Of a DNA stretch of 64,000 bases, positions 758 to 52,924 are shown in pieces. Location of the stretch: the IMG/VR virus record IMGVR_UViG_3300028864_000017, one strand, 5' to 3'. The notes beneath the pieces are model-generated. The model saw nothing but the letters and a program-made list of their open reading frames with translations. It did no database searches and was not told where the DNA came from. A program made the position numbers and the translations under genes. Every line of letters starts with the position of its first letter. Position 1 is the first letter of the stretch. The stretch comes from a virus (lineage: Duplodnaviria > Caudoviricetes).

Positions 758-2707
758 TTAAAATTTAGATGCAATTTTTTTCAAATTATCTAATACTACT
801 TTATTATCCCAAAAATTAGGATTACTTTCCTCATCTTTAAATGCACTAAATTTTTTATCATTGGAATCTGATATTAAATTTAATGCTTTCCACCAAAACT
901 TAACTCTATCAATTTTACGACAGCTCTTAATATTTATTTTATCTTTTTGATAATTACTAGCTATTACACCATCAAATGAATTACTAGGATTACTTAGATC
1001 TAAATCAGCTATGAATTTTTCACCTGATGGCTCGCACAAAAATAATTTATTTGTCTTATTATCGGAGCTAATATAATTATTAAAAACTAAAAAACTATTA
1101 CTTTGTCCATTAGTATTTGCACTTGTACCTGATGGTAAGCTTGCACCTTTCTTTAGCATAAAATATACATTAACGACATCATCTTTTTTAAGAGTCACAT
1201 TTGCAAAATTAGTAGATGAAAATATATTTTGAAATTCTTTAAAATTTGATGTAACTATATTATTTTCAATTTTCTTTATTGTCTGAGTGATCATAAACAT
1301 ATAGAAGCCATTTGATGGCGCTGAACTAATTGGTGCAATTGTAGAATTATAATTTATTCCTTGATAATCAAATATACAATATTGCCAATTTCCTTCCAAA
1401 CCACCAATCTTAGTTTCATATTGATTTAATGAATCACCAAGTTGATCACCAATCTCTAATGATTCAGTGTCACTTCCAAGTTTTTTTACTTCTTTATTTG
1501 CTTTTAATGTAGATCCTGATAAATTTACAGTTGATCCATAGTTACCTTCTCTTATATCAACAATTGGTATGTCCATAAGCAAAGAAAAACTTGCATATAC
1601 TTTTGATAATTCTTTATCCCATCTCAATTTCAATTTTTGTTTTTCAACATCTTGACCTTGATTTTCTGGGACAAATAATTCTTTTGCAGTAAGTTGAATA
1701 ACTTTCAAGCTTTCTGAATTTACATTTGATGCAACTTCTTTCATAACATCAGTTTTTCTATTAATTGTTTTTTCTATTTCTGCTAAATTTATATCTGATA
1801 TTGGAAGAGAAAAATCTTCTTCTCGTTCTTTATATTTATCTTGATCTCTTTTAGTTATTATACTTTTAACACTAACCCAACTCTTGACTCCTGATTTTGG
1901 TCTGATAGTTGGTGAATTTGATCCTAATCCTATTTTACCTGCGCTTGAATCTGTCTTAAGTTGAGCTAATGCTTCATTTGTAGATGTTGCTTCTGATGCA
2001 CCTTTACTTTTAGATTCTTTTTCTTTTAATTTTCTAACTATCTCATAATTAACATATATAGCTTTTATCATATCAAGTTTCTTTTTAGCATCTTCGTCAC
2101 CTTCATCTGCGTTTTTCTTAATTTCATCAAAATATTGAATATTTTTTTTCAAAAATTCGTATGTCTCAGATTCCATTCTATCATATTCTTCTTTATCTAC
2201 AACTTCTTTTACATCATTAATATTTTTTATTATAGGTCTATCATTATCTGTTTTTATTCCTGATTTTTTAATCAATTCTTCAACATCTTCACCTTCTGTG
2301 CCATTCATCATCCTATTAAATAAATCTTCTCCAATATCTTTTTTAATTGCTTCAAAATTAACATCATTTTTATTTTCAGATGAATCAGAATTAGTATTTT
2401 CTTCTCCTCCTTCAATTTTACCTGATTGCAAATTAATTTTTTTAATAAAACAATATATTATAACTCCACGTACCAATTCATTTATTAATTTTGCAATCAA
2501 TCTATTAATTATGAAATTTTCTTTACCCTTTCTCCATAGCCAACTCAAACCTTTGAATAAACCATTCATCAATTTTCCTAAATATGTATCTTTCAAATCA
2601 GCATTATTAGCAAATCCATCTCTAGCTCCAACTCCACCTTGAGTACCGCCAAATATTTCATTCATTTTAATAAAATCTTTACGACTTTGAATATTTTTAA
2701 ATTCCAT
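758..2707 (-). CDS. Hypothetical protein, possibly virion-associated (649 aa)
   Basis: Long ORF; N-terminal ...KDFIKMNE resembles the N-terminal motif seen on other putative virion proteins here. Confidence 0.6.
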   Translation of the reverse strand: MEFKNIQSRKDFIKMNEIFGGTQGGVGARDGFANNADLKDTYLGKLMNGLFKGLSWLWRKGKENFIINRLIAKLINELVRGVIIYCFIKKINLQSGKIEGGEENTNSDSSENKNDVNFEAIKKDIGEDLFNRMMNGTEGEDVEELIKKSGIKTDNDRPIIKNINDVKEVVDKEEYDRMESETYEFLKKNIQYFDEIKKNADEGDEDAKKKLDMIKAIYVNYEIVRKLKEKESKSKGASEATSTNEALAQLKTDSSAGKIGLGSNSPTIRPKSGVKSWVSVKSIITKRDQDKYKEREEDFSLPISDINLAEIEKTINRKTDVMKEVASNVNSESLKVIQLTAKELFVPENQGQDVEKQKLKLRWDKELSKVYASFSLLMDIPIVDIREGNYGSTVNLSGSTLKANKEVKKLGSDTESLEIGDQLGDSLNQYETKIGGLEGNWQYCIFDYQGINYNSTIAPISSAPSNGFYMFMITQTIKKIENNIVTSNFKEFQNIFSSTNFANVTLKKDDVVNVYFMLKKGASLPSGTSANTNGQSNSFLVFNNYISSDNKTNKLFLCEPSGEKFIADLDLSNPSNSFDGVIASNYQKDKINIKSCRKIDRVKFWWKALNLISDSNDKKFSAFKDEESNPNFWDNKVVLDNLKKIASKF

Positions 2708-2712
2708 TTATT

Positions 2713-3201
2713 TTATATTAATTTTTTAATTTTTAGACCATTATATGAATATTTTTTACCAAATAATACAAAATAATCATTTTCAAATTTAACAGGGCAA
2801 TCTTTAGATTTATCTATACTTGAATCATAAATAATAACATCATTGATGCTTAATGAATAATTTTTTAATTCATTTATAAAAGATCCATATAATTCTTTAT
2901 TAGATTTCATAATAGTATATTTTTTTTCAGGTTTTACTACTGATGATTCAATATTTTCTATTTTTTTCACTTCTGAGATTTTTTCGTTTTTTTTATTTTC
3001 ACTTTTTTTATTAAGTGATTTAGATGGAATATCTTGAATTAATTCATCATTAATATGCTTCTTAATTGATGATTCTGAAGGAGAATCAGTTATTAGCTCA
3101 GCAGAATCATCTTTAAATTGATATTTTTCAACAATATCAAATTTTTTATTATTATTGATATTTTTATTATTTTCTTGATTATTATCTAATTCTTCTGACA
3201 T
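2713..3201 (-). CDS. Hypothetical protein
   Basis: ORF packed in operon with neighbours. Confidence 0.7.
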   Translation of the reverse strand: MSEELDNNQENNKNINNNKKFDIVEKYQFKDDSAELITDSPSESSIKKHINDELIQDIPSKSLNKKSENKKNEKISEVKKIENIESSVVKPEKKYTIMKSNKELYGSFINELKNYSLSINDVIIYDSSIDKSKDCPVKFENDYFVLFGKKYSYNGLKIKKLI

Positions 3202-48495: not shown

Positions 48496-48675
48496 ATGAA
48501 ATCAAAAAGTGTATTATTAGTTTTCGTTGTTTCTGTGATGTTGTGTAGTTGTTCACAAAATGGACTTTATAATAGTAAAAATACTCACAAAAACAGCACA
48601 AAGAATCATGAAGTCAATTCAAATGGTTTATATGCATATGAATATTTCAAAAATAATACAATATATATTTGGTAG
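48496..48675 (+). CDS. Small lipoprotein (59 aa), not in the ORF track
   Basis: MKSKSVLLVFVVSVMLCSCSQN... signal peptide II with lipobox; own TACTTTTG promoter at 48459-48466. Confidence 0.7.
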   Translation: MKSKSVLLVFVVSVMLCSCSQNGLYNSKNTHKNSTKNHEVNSNGLYAYEYFKNNTIYIW

Positions 48676-48699
48676 ATTAAAAACTTTATTGTAATTTTG
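48668..48699 (+). promoter_or_regulatory. Bacteroidota sigma-A promoter for the interrupted tRNA
   Basis: TTTG-N20-TAATTTTG; near-identical to 49436-49467. Confidence 0.8.
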
Positions 48700-48717
48700 T
48701 TTTAAAATATAAGAGAT

Positions 48718-48903
48718 CGGTTGGTAGCTCAATAGGTAGAGCAGTTGGATTAGTTAATTCTAATCGTATTAATAAGAAAAAATTTTAAAGAAGTAAGTGA
48801 TTCAATATAATTAGCTAATGTGGAGAATGACTGAAAATGAGAGATTAATATTGTTAATATCATAACAGGCAAAAGATAGGGGGTTCGAATCCTTCCCAAC
48901 TGA
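48718..48903 (+). tRNA. Interrupted tRNA-like gene (about 110-nt insert in the anticodon region; identity undetermined)
   Basis: Acceptor CGGTTGG/CCAACTG-A, D-arm GCTC-AATAGGTA-GAGC and T-arm GGGGG-TTCGAAT-CCTTC flank an AT-rich insert. Confidence 0.6.
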
Positions 48904-48919
48904 CAATAAATTATGAAAA

Positions 48920-49390
48920 ATGGAAAAAATTTTAATATTTAAAAATTTTAAGGATATTCCATTTGGAAAAATATTTCAAATAAGGTTTAAAGAACCTATG
49001 GGAATAAAAGAATGTCCATATTTATATAGATGGACATTAATTATTTTTGGATATTCATTTAGATTACACCACTGGCTTAGATCAGATGATAGACGTTTTT
49101 TTCATGATCACTCATGTGATTTAATATCAATAATAATAAAAGGCAAATACTTTAATGTAATACCAGATGAAAATGGAAATCCTGTTAAGTATTTAGCTGA
49201 AGCATGGAAGCCACGTTTTATGAAAGCAGAACAAAGACATTACTTAGATATACCAAAAGAAGGAGCTTGGACAATTTTATTGTGTTCAAAATCATATCAT
49301 AAATGGGGATTCTATGTGAATAATCACAAATGGAGACCATTAAGATATTTTCATAAGTTTGGAATTATTCAAACAGCAGATTATCAATAA
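48920..49390 (+). CDS. Cupin-like hypothetical protein
   Basis: RLHHW.RSDD..FHDH...IIKGKY..H pattern. Confidence 0.6.
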   Translation: MEKILIFKNFKDIPFGKIFQIRFKEPMGIKECPYLYRWTLIIFGYSFRLHHWLRSDDRRFFHDHSCDLISIIIKGKYFNVIPDENGNPVKYLAEAWKPRFMKAEQRHYLDIPKEGAWTILLCSKSYHKWGFYVNNHKWRPLRYFHKFGIIQTADYQ

Positions 49391-49435
49391 AATATAGTGA
49401 TTAAATAAAATAAATCGAAAATAATTCAATAAATG

Positions 49436-49467
49436 TTTGGTAGATTGAAAACTTTATTGTACTTTTG
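49436..49467 (+). promoter_or_regulatory. Bacteroidota sigma-A promoter of the leader/tRNA operon
   Basis: TTTG-N20-TACTTTTG. Confidence 0.8.
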
Positions 49468-49568
49468 TACTATCATATTAAAAGAAATCAAAAATAGAAA
49501 AAAATGATATTTTTTCTATTATATATAACAAAGAATAAAAAACATAACAAGATAAAATTTTAGAAATC

Positions 49569-49676
49569 ATGAGAGCAATAAGTAAACATAGTAGTTCATC
49601 AAAATCCTTTAAATTCTGGTTTAGAAAAACCAAGTTTGGAACAGATACTTCTTGTCTTATTGTTAATATAAGCTAA
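49569..49676 (+). CDS. Putative attenuator leader peptide (35 aa) MRAISKHSSSSKSFKFWFRKTKFGTDTSCLIVNIS
   Basis: Manual translation; codons 5-18 are all Ser/Lys/His/Phe/Trp, matching the downstream tRNAs. Confidence 0.75.
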   Translation: MRAISKHSSSSKSFKFWFRKTKFGTDTSCLIVNIS

Positions 49677-49734
49677 CATTAATAAATGTAAAAAAGAAAT
49701 ATAAATCCAAACTCAAAAAGTTTGGATTTTTTTT
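49605..49734 (+). promoter_or_regulatory. Transcription attenuator: 1:2 protector, 2:3 antiterminator, 3:4 terminator
   Basis: Hairpin 49605-49640; AGTTTGGA (49633-40) is complementary to TCCAAACT (49706-13). Confidence 0.65.
49703..49734 (+). terminator. Intrinsic terminator between leader and tRNA array
   Basis: AAATCCAAACT-CAAAA-AGTTTGGATTT plus T tract. Confidence 0.88.
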
Positions 49735-49742
49735 GTTTAAAT

Positions 49743-49759
49743 AAGTTCTTTGAAATATT
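49743..49759 (+). promoter_or_regulatory. boxA-like antitermination element
   Basis: AAGTTCTTTGAAATATT resembles rRNA-operon boxA and sits just before the first tRNA. Confidence 0.5.
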
Positions 49760-49777
49760 AGATATGAAATAAATTAT

Positions 49778-49862
49778 GTACCTGGAGCTCGGTTGGAGAC
49801 GTAAGTCGTTGAGCCAATGTCTTTTAAACATTAGGTCGTGGGTTCAAGTCCCATCAGGTACA
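49778..49862 (+). tRNA. tRNA-Lys(UUU) with expanded D-loop
   Basis: GTACCTG/CAGGTAC-A; anticodon arm AATGT-CTTTTAA-ACATT; 20-nt D-loop containing GAC-GTAA-GTC. Confidence 0.85.
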
Positions 49863-49866
49863 CAAT

Positions 49867-49939
49867 GGACCGTTAGCTCAGTTGGTAGAGCTTAAAACTT
49901 TTAATTTTAAGGTCGTGAGTTCAAATCTCACACGGTTCA
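49867..49939 (+). tRNA. tRNA-Lys(UUU)
   Basis: GGACCGT/ACGGTTC-A; TAAAA-CTTTTAA-TTTTA; canonical D and T arms. Confidence 0.93.
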
Positions 49940-50068
49940 CATTTGTCATAGTGGATGACAGTTATTCAGTTAGGCTGGGCATAAAAATTATCCATCGGAA
50001 TGGTGAGAAGCTATTATAAAAAATAAATATAAAATCATGGGGTAAAGTTAGATTTCGACAAAAAATTT

Positions 50069-50380
50069 ATGACACAAAGAGATGAAACAGGACGATTCAT
50101 TGTTAAGTCATTAAAAACAGGTAAAAGTTATTATGTGGAACCAATTGGTTCAAAAAGATCATCAAGTTGGGGATCATATAATCCAAGTACAGGTGATATT
50201 GAACATAAAAAAGGATATGATAAATATTCAGGTGCAATATCAGAAGATGAAAGCCTAATTACAAAAGAAAATGGATTTGAAGATATTACATATTCAGGAA
50301 TAGGTGTTTCACCATTCTCAGTGATTGAGAAATTAGATTTAGAATATGAAAGAAAAATAATACTTGATAAAAACAAGTAA
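50069..50380 (+). CDS. Hypothetical protein embedded in the tRNA array
   Basis: 103-aa ORF DETGRFIV...YYVEPIG...KYSGAISEDES. Confidence 0.75.
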   Translation: MTQRDETGRFIVKSLKTGKSYYVEPIGSKRSSSWGSYNPSTGDIEHKKGYDKYSGAISEDESLITKENGFEDITYSGIGVSPFSVIEKLDLEYERKIILDKNK

Positions 50381-50388
50381 TGGTATAA

Positions 50389-50463
50389 GGGAAGGTAGCT
50401 CCAAATGAGTAGAGCATCACGTTGAAGCCGTGAGTGTTATGGGTTCGAGTCCCATTCTTCCCA
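50389..50463 (+). tRNA. tRNA-Phe(GAA)
   Basis: GGGAAGG/TCTTCCC-A; TCACG-TTGAAGC-CGTGA; D-loop lacks GG. Confidence 0.88.
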
Positions 50464-50472
50464 CAAAAATAT

Positions 50473-50553
50473 GCGTCAGTATGCAAGTGGCTAAAGCTGT
50501 TGGTCTCCAAAACCAATCCGTAAGGTTCGTGGGTTCAAATCCTGCCTGGCGTG
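50473..50553 (+). tRNA. tRNA-Trp(CCA) with 12-nt variable region
   Basis: GCGTCAG/CTGGCGT-G; TTGGT-CTCCAAA-ACCAA; variable region TCCGTAAGGTTC. Confidence 0.85.
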
Positions 50554-50586
50554 CAATGATATTCTAAGAGTAGAATATTATAACTT

Positions 50587-50677
50587 GGAAGTATAAGCCC
50601 AGTTGGTCTAAGGGTAGCTGTCCTGAAAACAGTAGGTCGCTAAAAACGGCGTGTGGGTTCAAGTCCTACTACTTCCG
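50587..50677 (+). tRNA. tRNA-Ser(UGA)
   Basis: GGAAGTA/TACTTCC-G; GCTGT-CCTGAAA-ACAGT (C33); long variable arm. Confidence 0.88.
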
Positions 50678-50685
50678 CAAAAAAT

Positions 50686-50773
50686 GGTAAGTTAAGCAGT
50701 CAATTGGAGTGGCGACTAGCCTTGAAAACTAGGTTTCGTTTAATCGGATGGGGGTCGGGTCCTCAACTTACCG
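50686..50773 (+). tRNA. tRNA-Ser(UGA), divergent T-loop
   Basis: GGTAAGT/ACTTACC-G; loop CTTGAAA; long variable arm; T-loop GTCGGGT. Confidence 0.7.
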
Positions 50774-50787
50774 CAAATTATTAAAAA

Positions 50788-50860
50788 GGAGATTAAGCTA
50801 ATCTGGTGAAAGCGTATGCCTGAAGAGCATGAGAGATTGGATCAAAACCAATAATCTCCA
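50788..50860 (+). tRNA. tRNA-Phe(GAA), second copy
   Basis: GGAGATT/AATCTCC-A; TATGC-CTGAAGA-GCATG; T-loop ATCAAAA. Confidence 0.82.
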
Positions 50861-50865
50861 CATAA

Positions 50866-50956
50866 GGAAAATTAAGTCCATAATTGGTATTGGCGCAGTT
50901 TGCTAAACTGTTCATCGAGTTAAATCGGTGTGAGGGTCCAAGTCCCCCATTTTCCG
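50866..50956 (+). tRNA. tRNA-Ser(GCU)
   Basis: GGAAAAT/ATTTTCC-G; GCAGT-TTGCTAA-ACTGT; long variable arm. Confidence 0.88.
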
Positions 50957-50985
50957 CAAATATTCAGAATGTGAATATTATATAT

Positions 50986-51072
50986 GTCACTTGTAGTCGG
51001 TAAGGGATGCCGCCCTGATTGTGGTTCAGGAATACTTAATAGTTAATGTGGGTTCGAATCCCATCTGGTGAC
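50986..51072 (+). tRNA. tRNA-His(GUG) with G-1:C73 and 17-nt variable region
   Basis: CCTGA-TTGTGGT-TCAGG; T-arm GTGGG-TTCGAAT-CCCAT. Confidence 0.8.
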
Positions 51073-51081
51073 CAAATATAT

Positions 51082-51158
51082 GGTGGATATAGTGTTAGCG
51101 GTTAGCACGTTAGGTTGTGGTCCTAAAAGGTTCGGTTCGAATCCGAATATTCACCCCA
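51082..51158 (+). tRNA. tRNA-His(GUG), canonical, CCA encoded
   Basis: G-1 GTGGATA/TATTCAC-C-CCA; TTAGG-TTGTGGT-CCTAA. Confidence 0.93.
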
Positions 51159-51159
51159 A

Positions 51160-51256
51160 AAAAAAGATTATTGATGAAGTGCTGGAAGCCTTAGTTCGAT
51201 TCTGATAGTCACTGATTAGTCATCAGTAAAGGTTGACAACCTTTGTAATCTTTTTT
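51160..51256 (+). ncRNA. Unassigned structured RNA inside the tRNA array
   Basis: 11-bp closing stem, T-loop-like GTTCGATTC and two perfect internal hairpins. Confidence 0.5.
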
Positions 51257-51267
51257 GACATTAAAAT

Positions 51268-51339
51268 GCTCTTGTAGCTTAATGGTAGAGCTGTTCCCTC
51301 TTAAGGAAAGGGTTGTGGGTTCGATTCCCACCAAGAGCA
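51268..51339 (+). tRNA. tRNA-Lys(CUU)
   Basis: GCTCTTG/CAAGAGC-A; anticodon loop CTCTTAA; canonical T-arm. Confidence 0.92.
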
Positions 51340-51343
51340 CAAA

Positions 51344-52087
51344 TCATAAAAATTTACTGTGTATATCTGCTTCCCATTCATTTGAAGGATATGTTAGTTC
51401 TCTTACATCAAATATTTCAGAAATATAATAATCTCCGTTTCTTCTTCTACTATATCCTAAAACTGAATCATATCCAGCATCTCTAACAGAATTTGCTATT
51501 ATATTTTCTTGGATTGCATATCTTATTAGATTTGATTGTTTACTATTTATTATCATATCATATCCTAAATCACAATTTTCACTATAATCAGATTTTTTAT
51601 TGTATTTAGTTAATAATTCTCCTATATTCTCTGGTTGTATATTACGTTTTCTTAATATGAACTCGTAAATATCATTTAATAATTTTTTATTTGAACCTTT
51701 TCCATTAATTTTATCATATGCATTTTCAGGTACTTTACCGCCAGTAGCTCCTTTTATAAAAAGTGGATTTTTTAATAAAATTTCACCTTCGTATTTATCT
51801 GTTCCTCCATATCCACTTTTTCCTCCTCTATATTCTTTGATGTTTTTATCTTCAATTGGTAGATAGAATACACCAGTTCTTATTGATGTTTCTCCGTCTT
51901 GTTCTGGCTTTTGGTAACGAACAACATTTAGTAATAGTCCATCATCTAATATTTTTGTTCCTGTTGTATTTTCTACAGCTGACATAAAAATTTCGTCATT
52001 TAATGGTAATTCTGTTTTATATTTTAGTGATCTTGTTCTATCAGGTGATATATGTTCATTGATAAATATTTCAAATTTTGTTTTCAT
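51344..52087 (-). CDS. Hypothetical protein
   Basis: Starts MKTKFEIFINE. Confidence 0.7.
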   Translation of the reverse strand: MKTKFEIFINEHISPDRTRSLKYKTELPLNDEIFMSAVENTTGTKILDDGLLLNVVRYQKPEQDGETSIRTGVFYLPIEDKNIKEYRGGKSGYGGTDKYEGEILLKNPLFIKGATGGKVPENAYDKINGKGSNKKLLNDIYEFILRKRNIQPENIGELLTKYNKKSDYSENCDLGYDMIINSKQSNLIRYAIQENIIANSVRDAGYDSVLGYSRRRNGDYYISEIFDVRELTYPSNEWEADIHSKFL

Positions 52088-52150
52088 ATTTGTATATATT
52101 AATAAACAAATTTAGATTTTTTAAATAGATAATAAATATAAAAAATAAAA

Positions 52151-52924
52151 ATGTACTACGTAATACAAGAAAATACTTTCAAAGAAGAAAATTATGATAA
52201 TTTAGTTGAAACATTAGATAGAATGAAATTACCTTATGAAGTAGTTAAGGTTTTGCCATTTGTAGAAGATTTTGAGTTTAAAACTAATAGAAAAGATGTA
52301 TTTTGCTTTGGTTCTGTTAAAATGGCAAGATTAGCAAAAAAATACAAATGGTTTCCTGGTTCTCAATTGAATGATAATCATGATTATAGAGTTTATAGTA
52401 AATATTACAAGGAAAATTTGTTGAATTATGATTCAATAGTTCAAAAATTTGGAGATGATATTAATGAAAGGACTTTATTTTTTGCTAGACCGTGTGAAGA
52501 TACAAAAACATTTACTGGAAAGGTATTTGATATGTATGAATGGATAGAATTTAGAGATAATCATTTGAATAGTGAATATGAAACTTCATTAACAAAAGAT
52601 ACTGATATTCAAGTTAGTTCTGTTAAAAAAATAACAAAAGAATTTAGGTTTTGGATAGTTGGAGGAAAAGTTGTGACTGGAAGTCTATATAGAATGGGAT
52701 ATTTTATTAATAGAAGTGAATTAGTTGATGATGGAGCATTAGAATTTTGCAAAGAAATGGTTAGTATTTATAATATATCAAATTCTTTTGTGATGGATAT
52801 TTGTGAAGTGATTATTGATGGTAATCCTGAATATAAAATAATTGAATTGGGATGTATTAATTCGGCAGGTTTTTATTCTGCAAATATGCCTAAGTTAATT
52901 AATGCTCTTGAAGAAGAATTTTAA
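52151..52924 (+). CDS. ATP-grasp protein (R2K / DUF4343-like)
   Basis: FFARPCEDTKTFTG, EFRFWIV.GKVV, MDI..IIELGCINSAGFY. Confidence 0.8.
   Translation: MYYVIQENTFKEENYDNLVETLDRMKLPYEVVKVLPFVEDFEFKTNRKDVFCFGSVKMARLAKKYKWFPGSQLNDNHDYRVYSKYYKENLLNYDSIVQKFGDDINERTLFFARPCEDTKTFTGKVFDMYEWIEFRDNHLNSEYETSLTKDTDIQVSSVKKITKEFRFWIVGGKVVTGSLYRMGYFINRSELVDDGALEFCKEMVSIYNISNSFVMDICEVIIDGNPEYKIIELGCINSAGFYSANMPKLINALEEEF

Follow-up and report, generated by a model that had tools for sequence, protein, structure and literature searches.

The reason for the presence of tRNA genes in phages has been a matter of debate for decades, and the regulation of such genes is almost unexplored. The locus described here raises the question of what decides when an array of 11 phage tRNA genes is transcribed. 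The array lies in a window of 64,000 nt, by which the whole stretch of analysed DNA is meant (IMG/VR record IMGVR_UViG_3300028864_000017). The window comes from a giant peat-soil phage: it carries a T4-type large terminase and pieces of a family B polymerase, the viral contigs related to it reach 675 kb, and its DNA occurs in many peat metagenomes. It is likely that transcription of the array, which serves Lys, Phe, Trp, Ser and His, is set by a ribosome-mediated transcription attenuator according to the decoding speed of the same codons, and these tRNAs are probably produced only while the matching codons are being decoded slowly. The whole analysis was performed in silico, and what it observes directly is the anatomy of the cassette upstream of the tRNA genes, its statistics and its co-variation across arrays. 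The elements of the cassette are as follows.

49436..49467, + strand: promoter-like element of Bacteroidota type, with a -33 TTTG (49436-39), a 20-nt spacer and a -7 TACTTTTG (49460-67)
49494..49528, + strand: 5'-untranslated region (UTR) module, consisting of an A/T hairpin (49494-49519) and, directly after it, a TATATATAA box (49520-28)
49569..49676, + strand: leader open reading frame (ORF) of 35 codons, ATG start, TAA stop (49674-76)
49581..49637, + strand: sensor codons 5-23 of the leader, codons 5-18 all being Ser, Lys, His, Phe or Trp
49633..49713, + strand: antiterminator, formed by pairing between region 2 (49633-40) and region 3 (49706-13) and enclosing the stop codon at 49674-76
49703..49737, + strand: intrinsic terminator, an 11-bp stem with a 5-nt loop (49703-49729), followed by a T run
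49745..49757, + strand: box GTTCTTTGAAATA, between the terminator and the first tRNA
49785..51340, + strand: array of 11 tRNA genes, called with ARAGORN and Rfam

This arrangement has the composition of a leader-peptide attenuator, namely a short codon-enriched ORF, an intrinsic terminator before the genes and a mutually exclusive pairing between regions 2 and 3. The original prediction, drawn up from the letters of this DNA, had proposed such a device, and its 35-codon leader was found as an ATG ORF. The peptide encoded by leader codons 5-18, SKHSSSSKSFKFWF, consists entirely of the five amino acids served by the array, as claimed. This 14-residue run is the longest of its kind in the six-frame translation of the window (128,000 codons, frequency of the five-residue set 0.27), the next longest being 9, and the runs in the window fall geometrically with length (10 of length 7, 5 of length 8, 2 of length 9 and one of 14). 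The residue set was fixed by the array and not picked after viewing the leader, every tRNA of the array being specific for Lys, Phe, Trp, Ser or His. Half of the leader codons (17/34) are cognate to array anticodons, and residues of the set are concentrated upstream of region 2 (15/20, vs. 4/14 after it). The prediction that each anticodon type of the array finds a cognate codon in the sensor stood in general, yet AAG, the sole codon read by anticodon CUU, is codon 22 and falls outside codons 5-18, and TCC, although present in the leader, is not read by anticodon UGA under standard wobble.

The leader is conserved in two relatives, whose neighbouring protein shares 91% and 89% identity with that of the window, and both of these close lineages carry the leader, the terminator and an array serving the same five amino acids. 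Array content being equal among the window and these two lineages, no test of co-variation could be drawn from the three. A search with a degenerate DNA pattern for the leader peptide matched only five viral contigs, representing three near-identical lineages, and for this reason no pair-level covariation analysis was made of the exact leader.

Related loci (numbered L; L111 is the genome of the 91% relative) were located on related giant-phage records with the cupin-like gene upstream of the array (48920-49390) as an anchor. Cassettes were searched mechanically: a terminator-like hairpin had to lie at most 300 nt before a tRNA, and an ATG ORF had to end no more than 120 nt before that hairpin. 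ARAGORN at very relaxed settings yielded false positives outside arrays, and the stricter '-ps' setting was therefore used for the statistics. The same cassette of promoter, A/T hairpin, leader ORF and terminator was found before many arrays, and the composition of its leader changed with that of the array behind it:

L114 and L119: leader rich in T, A, Q, G, P and R; tRNAs for Gly, Ala, Gln, Pro, Thr and Arg; 28/42 in the set, background 0.16, P=1.6e-13
L111: leader rich in N, I, Y, C, E, M and D; tRNAs for Glu, Asn, Asn, Cys, Ile, Ile and Tyr; 32/42 codons cognate
L115 and L116: leader rich in L, N, M, D, Y and E; tRNAs for Leu, Asp, Asn, Met, Glu and Tyr
L016: leader rich in T, E, N, L, D and M; tRNAs for these same amino acids

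Taken together, the sister cassettes of the related records serve no fewer than 18 of the 20 amino acids. A further case is provided by L113, L121 and L120, whose arrays are homologous to that of the window with the addition of Ile and Val tRNAs: their leaders include Ile and Val codons within a run of 21 residues of the set, while codons 5-18 of the window contain neither. Moreover, a sub-array located farther downstream in L113 holds genes for Ile(UAU), Arg(ACG) and Ser(GCU), which match the codons ATA, CGC and AGY of the L113 leader. When seven leaders were permuted over seven arrays, with the arrays defined by a fixed rule, the true pairing was the best of the 5040 permutations (summed z 27.3, vs. 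a mean of 0.07 and sd of 7.0); in two of the seven units the ORF had been chosen between two candidates, which weakens the p-value at most about four-fold. The check that had been proposed for the prediction, i.e. that leader content should co-vary with array content in related giant phages, was therefore passed, and this comparison supports a leader-peptide attenuator with array-matching codons as the gate of the tRNA genes.

The way in which the leaders have diverged suggests that they are read by ribosomes. Between the window and L001 five codons differ and no amino acid does (four synonymous changes and one stop-to-stop change, TAA>TGA), while the comparison with L004 gives three synonymous and two non-synonymous changes, and the sensor codons 5-28 of L114 and L119 differ by three synonymous and no non-synonymous changes. 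L113 and L121 have an identical sensor and peptide tails set in different frames by a 1-nt indel; the sensor being kept while the tail is rewritten, selection appears to act on the codons and the RNA rather than to preserve the function of a peptide. All cassette units retain the start codon, the reading frame and the stop codon. On these grounds the leader is probably translated.

The second component of the device is the competition between two RNA structures. The 11-bp terminator stem of the prediction was confirmed at 49703-49729, followed by its T run, with a hairpin energy of -10.8 kcal/mol. The perfect 8-bp complement of its 5' arm within the leader was likewise borne out: AGTTTGGA (49633-40) is the exact complement of TCCAAACT (49706-13), the duplex having -9.9 kcal/mol (p=0.004 vs. 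shuffles) and the extended antiterminator hairpin -14.1 kcal/mol (z=-3.2 vs. shuffles). Across families, complementarity of the leader to the terminator 5' arm exceeded that of shuffled leaders in 9 of 10 units (p 0.001-0.026), and the segment from region 2 to region 3 folded as a hairpin enclosing the stop codon in 8/8 units (z from -2.8 to -7.4). Region 2 itself differs by family (AGTTTGGA in the window, CTGGACT in L113, CAAGGGGT in L010b and GGCAGGG in L115), the antiterminator thus having been kept through complete sequence turnover; from the window to L113, for example, an A-U pair of the 2:3 helix becomes G-C, and the 3' arm of the terminator retains its U. In all units, 23-35 nt separate the stop codon from the terminator stem that follows it. 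Pooled over units, residues of the respective set make up 142/204 (70%) upstream of region 2 and 20/70 (29%) from region 2 on (Fisher 3e-9), i.e. the matched codons end where the antiterminator begins.

The prediction had further placed a 1:2 hairpin in the leader, and with it the full 1:2/2:3/3:4 layout of trp/his-type attenuators. Such a hairpin is present in the minimum-energy fold, but its stability comes from an inner stem (49617-32); the pairing of region 1 with region 2 amounts to -3.2 kcal/mol in the window and is no better than shuffles there or in any of the 8 units (p 0.07-0.99). The 1:2 anti-antiterminator is accordingly not supported, and the device departs from the trp/his-type layout in this respect. 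With no supported 1:2 pairing, the device is better described as a two-state switch, in which the translating ribosome itself would act as the anti-antiterminator. No region 1 being needed, an untranslated leader should read through, the opposite of superattenuation of the trp type, and the switch is probably ON without translation.

Folding of truncated transcripts is consistent with this scheme. Since equilibrium folding cannot show the switch, transcripts ending at 49718, before the 3' arm of the terminator (region 4), were used: the 2:3 pairing was in the minimum-energy fold without a ribosome or with the ribosomal A site at codons 5-16, and was lost with the A site at codons 18-28. The proposed sequence of events, in which leader translation, the direction of the switch and the feedback are predicted, would be as follows. 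Transcription would start near 49470 at the promoter-like element, and the 35-codon leader would be translated. Region 2, in the 3' part of the ORF, would pair with the terminator 5' arm to form the extended hairpin around the stop codon, unless a fast ribosome covers or melts both region 2 and the stop-codon region during synthesis of region 4 by the polymerase; with region 2 occupied the terminator would form and the array would stay silent. A ribosome stalled at codons 5-16 by scarcity of a charged cognate tRNA would leave the antiterminator intact and allow read-through into the tRNA genes, whose products would relieve the stall and close a negative-feedback loop. A stall at any of the five kinds of codon would be enough, making the leader an OR-logic sensor.

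Several observations weigh against this reading. The full-length transcript always folds to the terminator at equilibrium, whatever stretch is masked, and the proposed check of folding with the sensor codons held unpaired accordingly failed to make the switch visible; it follows that the switch must be kinetic, as in classical attenuators. The trp attenuator likewise prefers its terminator at equilibrium. A ribosome at codons 31-36 does not abolish the 2:3 pairing in the secondary-structure model, and the block at these positions is only a steric argument. Moreover, the 2:3 stem of the window has only 8 bp, and the distance from region 2 to the stop codon, about 30 nt in the window, L113 and L114, is 1-17 nt in the other units. 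One unit, L010a, is weak both in its match to the array (z=1.8) and in its 2:3 complementarity (p=0.13). An internal promoter may also lie between the terminator and the first tRNA. Finally, the -33/-7 pattern is not enriched across the window (8 found vs. 4.4 expected), a result that counts for a coincidental arrangement.

Under such a coincidence, a small independent gene with its own terminator would happen to precede an array served by another promoter. Besides the promoter count just given, it could draw on the abundance of S, K and F in AT-rich sequence, where the background of the five-residue set is 0.27-0.30; yet the 14-residue run is unique in the window, independent cassettes of different composition each match their own array, and the 2:3 complementarity recurs with different sequences, so that this explanation is very unlikely, its probability being close to negligible. 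A reading that dispenses with the ribosome would have the leader RNA act untranslated, by T-box-like pairing of triplets with anticodons, by protein binding, or with its hairpins as processing sites for pre-tRNA. Leaders of the T-box type do sense tRNA, and the A/T hairpin with its TATATATAA box has no assigned role. Against it stand the conservation of start, frame and stop in every unit, the placing of the stop codon 23-35 nt before the terminator, the synonymous character of the sensor changes, and the confinement of the matched triplets to one frame that ends at region 2. In addition, an Rfam cmscan of 48500-52500 (E<=1) returned only tRNAs and chance matches, with neither a T-box nor a leader family of the His, Trp, Thr or Leu type. 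Little probability is therefore left to an untranslated leader.

Two other readings accept the attenuator and dispute what it reports. It could respond to amino-acid starvation or tRNA charging instead of tRNA abundance, for instance by coupling tRNA output to host nutrition. All classical leader-peptide attenuators sense charged tRNA, which depends on amino-acid supply, and the anatomy here is the same; extra tRNA, however, cannot cure a shortage of amino acids, so the output would not correct the signal, and the tight match between leader and array, down to isoacceptors (in L113, CGC corresponds to Arg(ACG), ATA to Ile(UAU) and AGY to Ser(GCU)), points to tRNAs as the limiting factor. We regard starvation sensing as improbable. 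The attenuator could also serve in counter-defence, host anticodon nucleases (PrrC, PARIS or retron-type) or phage-induced decay of host tRNAs being the trigger for a replacement array, a reading that refines the preferred explanation and does not contradict it. tRNA-Lys(UUU), a classic target of nucleases, occurs twice in the array. That phage tRNAs can rescue infection from tRNA-cleaving defences is known (PMC10264068, PMC11555353 and PMC11464382). On the other hand, the amino acids covered by the sister cassettes extend beyond known nuclease targets, which a general homeostasis of tRNA supply fits better, and the sensor cannot tell cleavage from any other shortage. Nothing in the present data points specifically to anticodon nucleases, no nuclease, repair gene or resistant feature of an anticodon loop was examined or found, and the nuclease trigger suggested by the original prediction is not supported; counter-defence as the specific role is unlikely, if somewhat less so than starvation sensing.

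With the attenuator as the preferred reading, a wider picture can be outlined tentatively, and we consider it possible more than probable: giant phages would run a self-regulating tRNA economy of three to four arrays, each with a codon-matched leader, in which a shortfall of any cause (codon mismatch, host shut-off or tRNA cleavage) induces the matching set, the strongest form being an inducible counter-defence against anticodon nucleases.

The closest relatives of the cassette in design are the attenuators of amino-acid operons. In enterobacteria these include multivalent cases, such as ilvGMEDA (Ile/Leu/Val) and thr (Thr/Ile), in addition to the trp, his, leu and pheA leaders. Shared features are a short leader enriched in regulatory codons, an intrinsic terminator immediately before the genes, an antiterminator that excludes the terminator and takes its 5' strand from the ORF or from adjoining sequence, and the sensing of several amino acids by one leader. 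The phage system differs in that its output consists of tRNA genes and not of biosynthetic enzymes, the loop thereby regulating tRNA supply, and in that it resides in a phage, as a family of cassettes tuned to each array with up to 6-8 amino acids per leader. Unlike the trp/his type, it lacks a supported 1:2 pairing, its untranslated leader should read through, and no relationship in sequence or in Rfam connects the two.

Control of the translation machinery itself by a leader peptide has a precedent in pheST of E. coli, which is governed by the pheM leader attenuator; there, too, the attenuated gene product is a translation component serving the sensed codon. An attenuator-like, Phe-rich leader was reportedly noted in 1985 upstream of pheV, a tRNA-Phe gene of E. 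coli. According to PMC7049720, pheU and pheV are transcribed mainly as monocistronic RNAs with leaders of 3-4 nt. Both pheST and pheV are single-amino-acid, cellular cases, unlike the phage cassettes, which gate arrays of 5-12 tRNAs across a lineage.

T-box riboswitches resemble the phage cassette in that the state of a specific tRNA decides between terminator and antiterminator upstream of translation-related genes. In a T-box, one uncharged tRNA is bound by direct contacts with a specifier codon and with the T-box sequence, and no ORF is needed, whereas the phage sensor is an ORF with a conserved frame and synonymous drift. As to the tRNAs themselves, the array resembles the phage tRNA sets described for codon compensation or counter-defence, in which phage tRNAs sustain translation when host tRNAs are unsuitable or cleaved; the proposed circuit of sensing and feedback is what the present case adds. 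In PMC10264068, the words 'attenuat', 'leader' and 'terminator' do not occur, and no published description of leader-peptide control of tRNA arrays was found in full-text searches of the literature. What would be new here is leader-peptide attenuation with tRNA genes as the output, in a phage, and in families tuned to their arrays.

If the attenuator works as proposed, the phage gauges the decoding speed of given codons and responds with the matching tRNAs, which would show directly that phage translation is limited by the supply of tRNA and would extend a textbook mechanism of amino-acid operons to tRNA genes and to viruses. The cassettes would then represent a natural modular sensor that can be re-programmed, with one scaffold and varied codon content. 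Such leaders could be read as indicators of the tRNAs whose absence from the host a phage anticipates, and could supply parts for synthetic codon-specific sensors.

The individual genes of the array, listed below, were recovered to different extents depending on the settings. ARAGORN called 7 by default and Rfam 8 plus a weak ninth, and all 11, with the anticodons claimed for them, were found at relaxed thresholds.

49785-49863, + strand: tRNA-Lys(UUU), atypical
49867-49940, + strand: tRNA-Lys(UUU)
50389-50464, + strand: tRNA-Phe(GAA)
50473-50554, + strand: tRNA-Trp(CCA)
50587-50678, + strand: tRNA-Ser(UGA)
50686-50774, + strand: tRNA-Ser(UGA), degenerate
50788-50861, + strand: tRNA-Phe(GAA)
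50867-50957, + strand: tRNA-Ser(GCU)
50987-51073, + strand: tRNA-His(GUG)
51083-51158, + strand: tRNA-His(GUG)
51268-51340, + strand: tRNA-Lys(CUU)

A doubtful twelfth tRNA, Ser(CGA)-like, appeared at 51164-51253 at the relaxed threshold only. This spacer before the last tRNA is degenerate and tRNA-like, contains a short GC-containing hairpin with a T run, and might be a decayed tRNA or an internal terminator. Long variable arms are normally confined in bacteria to Leu, Ser and Tyr tRNAs; long, class II-like ones were seen in the tRNA-Trp(CCA) at 50473-50554 (82 nt) and the tRNA-His(GUG) at 50987-51073 (87 nt), and the first tRNA-Lys(UUU) of two related loci (L001:7443-7526 and L004:6818-6900, 83-84 nt) would also fit such an arm. 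Inside the array lies an ORF of 103 aa (50069-50380), conserved at 98% and 87% in the two close relatives and assigned to no Pfam or PHROG family.

The box GTTCTTTGAAATA has the same or a similar counterpart after the terminators of L111, L113, L114, L119 and L120, and is absent in L115, L116, L010 and L016. We take it to resemble boxA of E. coli. The exact variant of L111, the 14-mer TGCTCTTTGAAATA, occurred at 120 unrelated genome loci, none of them within 1.5 kb upstream of a 16S 5' motif, the phage host not having been identified. Of the boxA-like element in the original prediction, the existence and partial conservation of the box stood, but its identity as boxA is unsupported.

Regarding the start of the transcript, the element at 49436-49467 fits the Bacteroidota -33/-7 pattern, as expected from the host-type promoter predicted there, and by this resemblance it is a putative promoter. 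The 32-nt motif recurs at 48668-48699 with about 30/32 identical positions, and the promoter module is found about 100 nt upstream of leader ATGs in relatives. The copy at 48668-99 leads straight into a tRNA-Met(CAU)-like gene (48718-48904), which has a 110-nt insertion in its anticodon region (ARAGORN -i), with no leader ORF or terminator in between. The A/T hairpin and box of the 5' UTR are kept upstream of leaders across families and phages, e.g. as GGAAAAAA..TTTTT followed by TAATATATAA, and equivalents of the hairpin with a TAATATATAA-type box were seen upstream of the leaders of L113, L114, L115, L116, L119 and L016; these might function as a second promoter, as an operator or in translation. 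The 91% relative has two additional small ORFs in the interval from the cupin gene to the leader (L001:6469-7260), and its promoter with the 5'-UTR module is duplicated, at ~6790 and ~7125, the module therefore behaving as a portable promoter cassette.

No RNA data set was among those listed for the 2-kb stretch. A second search gave two runs with a small share; in one data set, a permafrost metatranscriptome, two low-depth contigs of a ~94% relative span 49420-49672 and 50009-50222. These contigs show neither ends nor strand and DNA carry-over is possible, so they count neither for nor against expression.

Comparison of the neighbouring genes with Pfam and PHROGs revealed nothing tied to tRNA biology, the only assignments being the cupin-like protein and an R2K ATP-grasp protein. 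The cupin-like gene (48920-49390) belongs to phrog_4786, annotated as 'cysteine dioxygenase', and directly adjoins tRNA genes in many distant phage contigs (the window and more than 20 related loci). The stop codons of the leader ORFs vary by unit, being TAA, TGA or TAG. In L111, the leader of the Asn/Ile/Tyr/Cys/Glu array is separated from two tRNA-like genes by an inserted ORF with repeated Cys/His motifs (2507-3195), which looks like an HNH endonuclease. Suppressor-type tRNAs were observed on related giant-phage contigs (L012:2342-2414, L014:2556-2709, L015:5750-5903 and L118:955), the anticodon being CUA in those beside the cupin gene and UUA in contig G003, which hints at stop-codon reassignment in some relatives.

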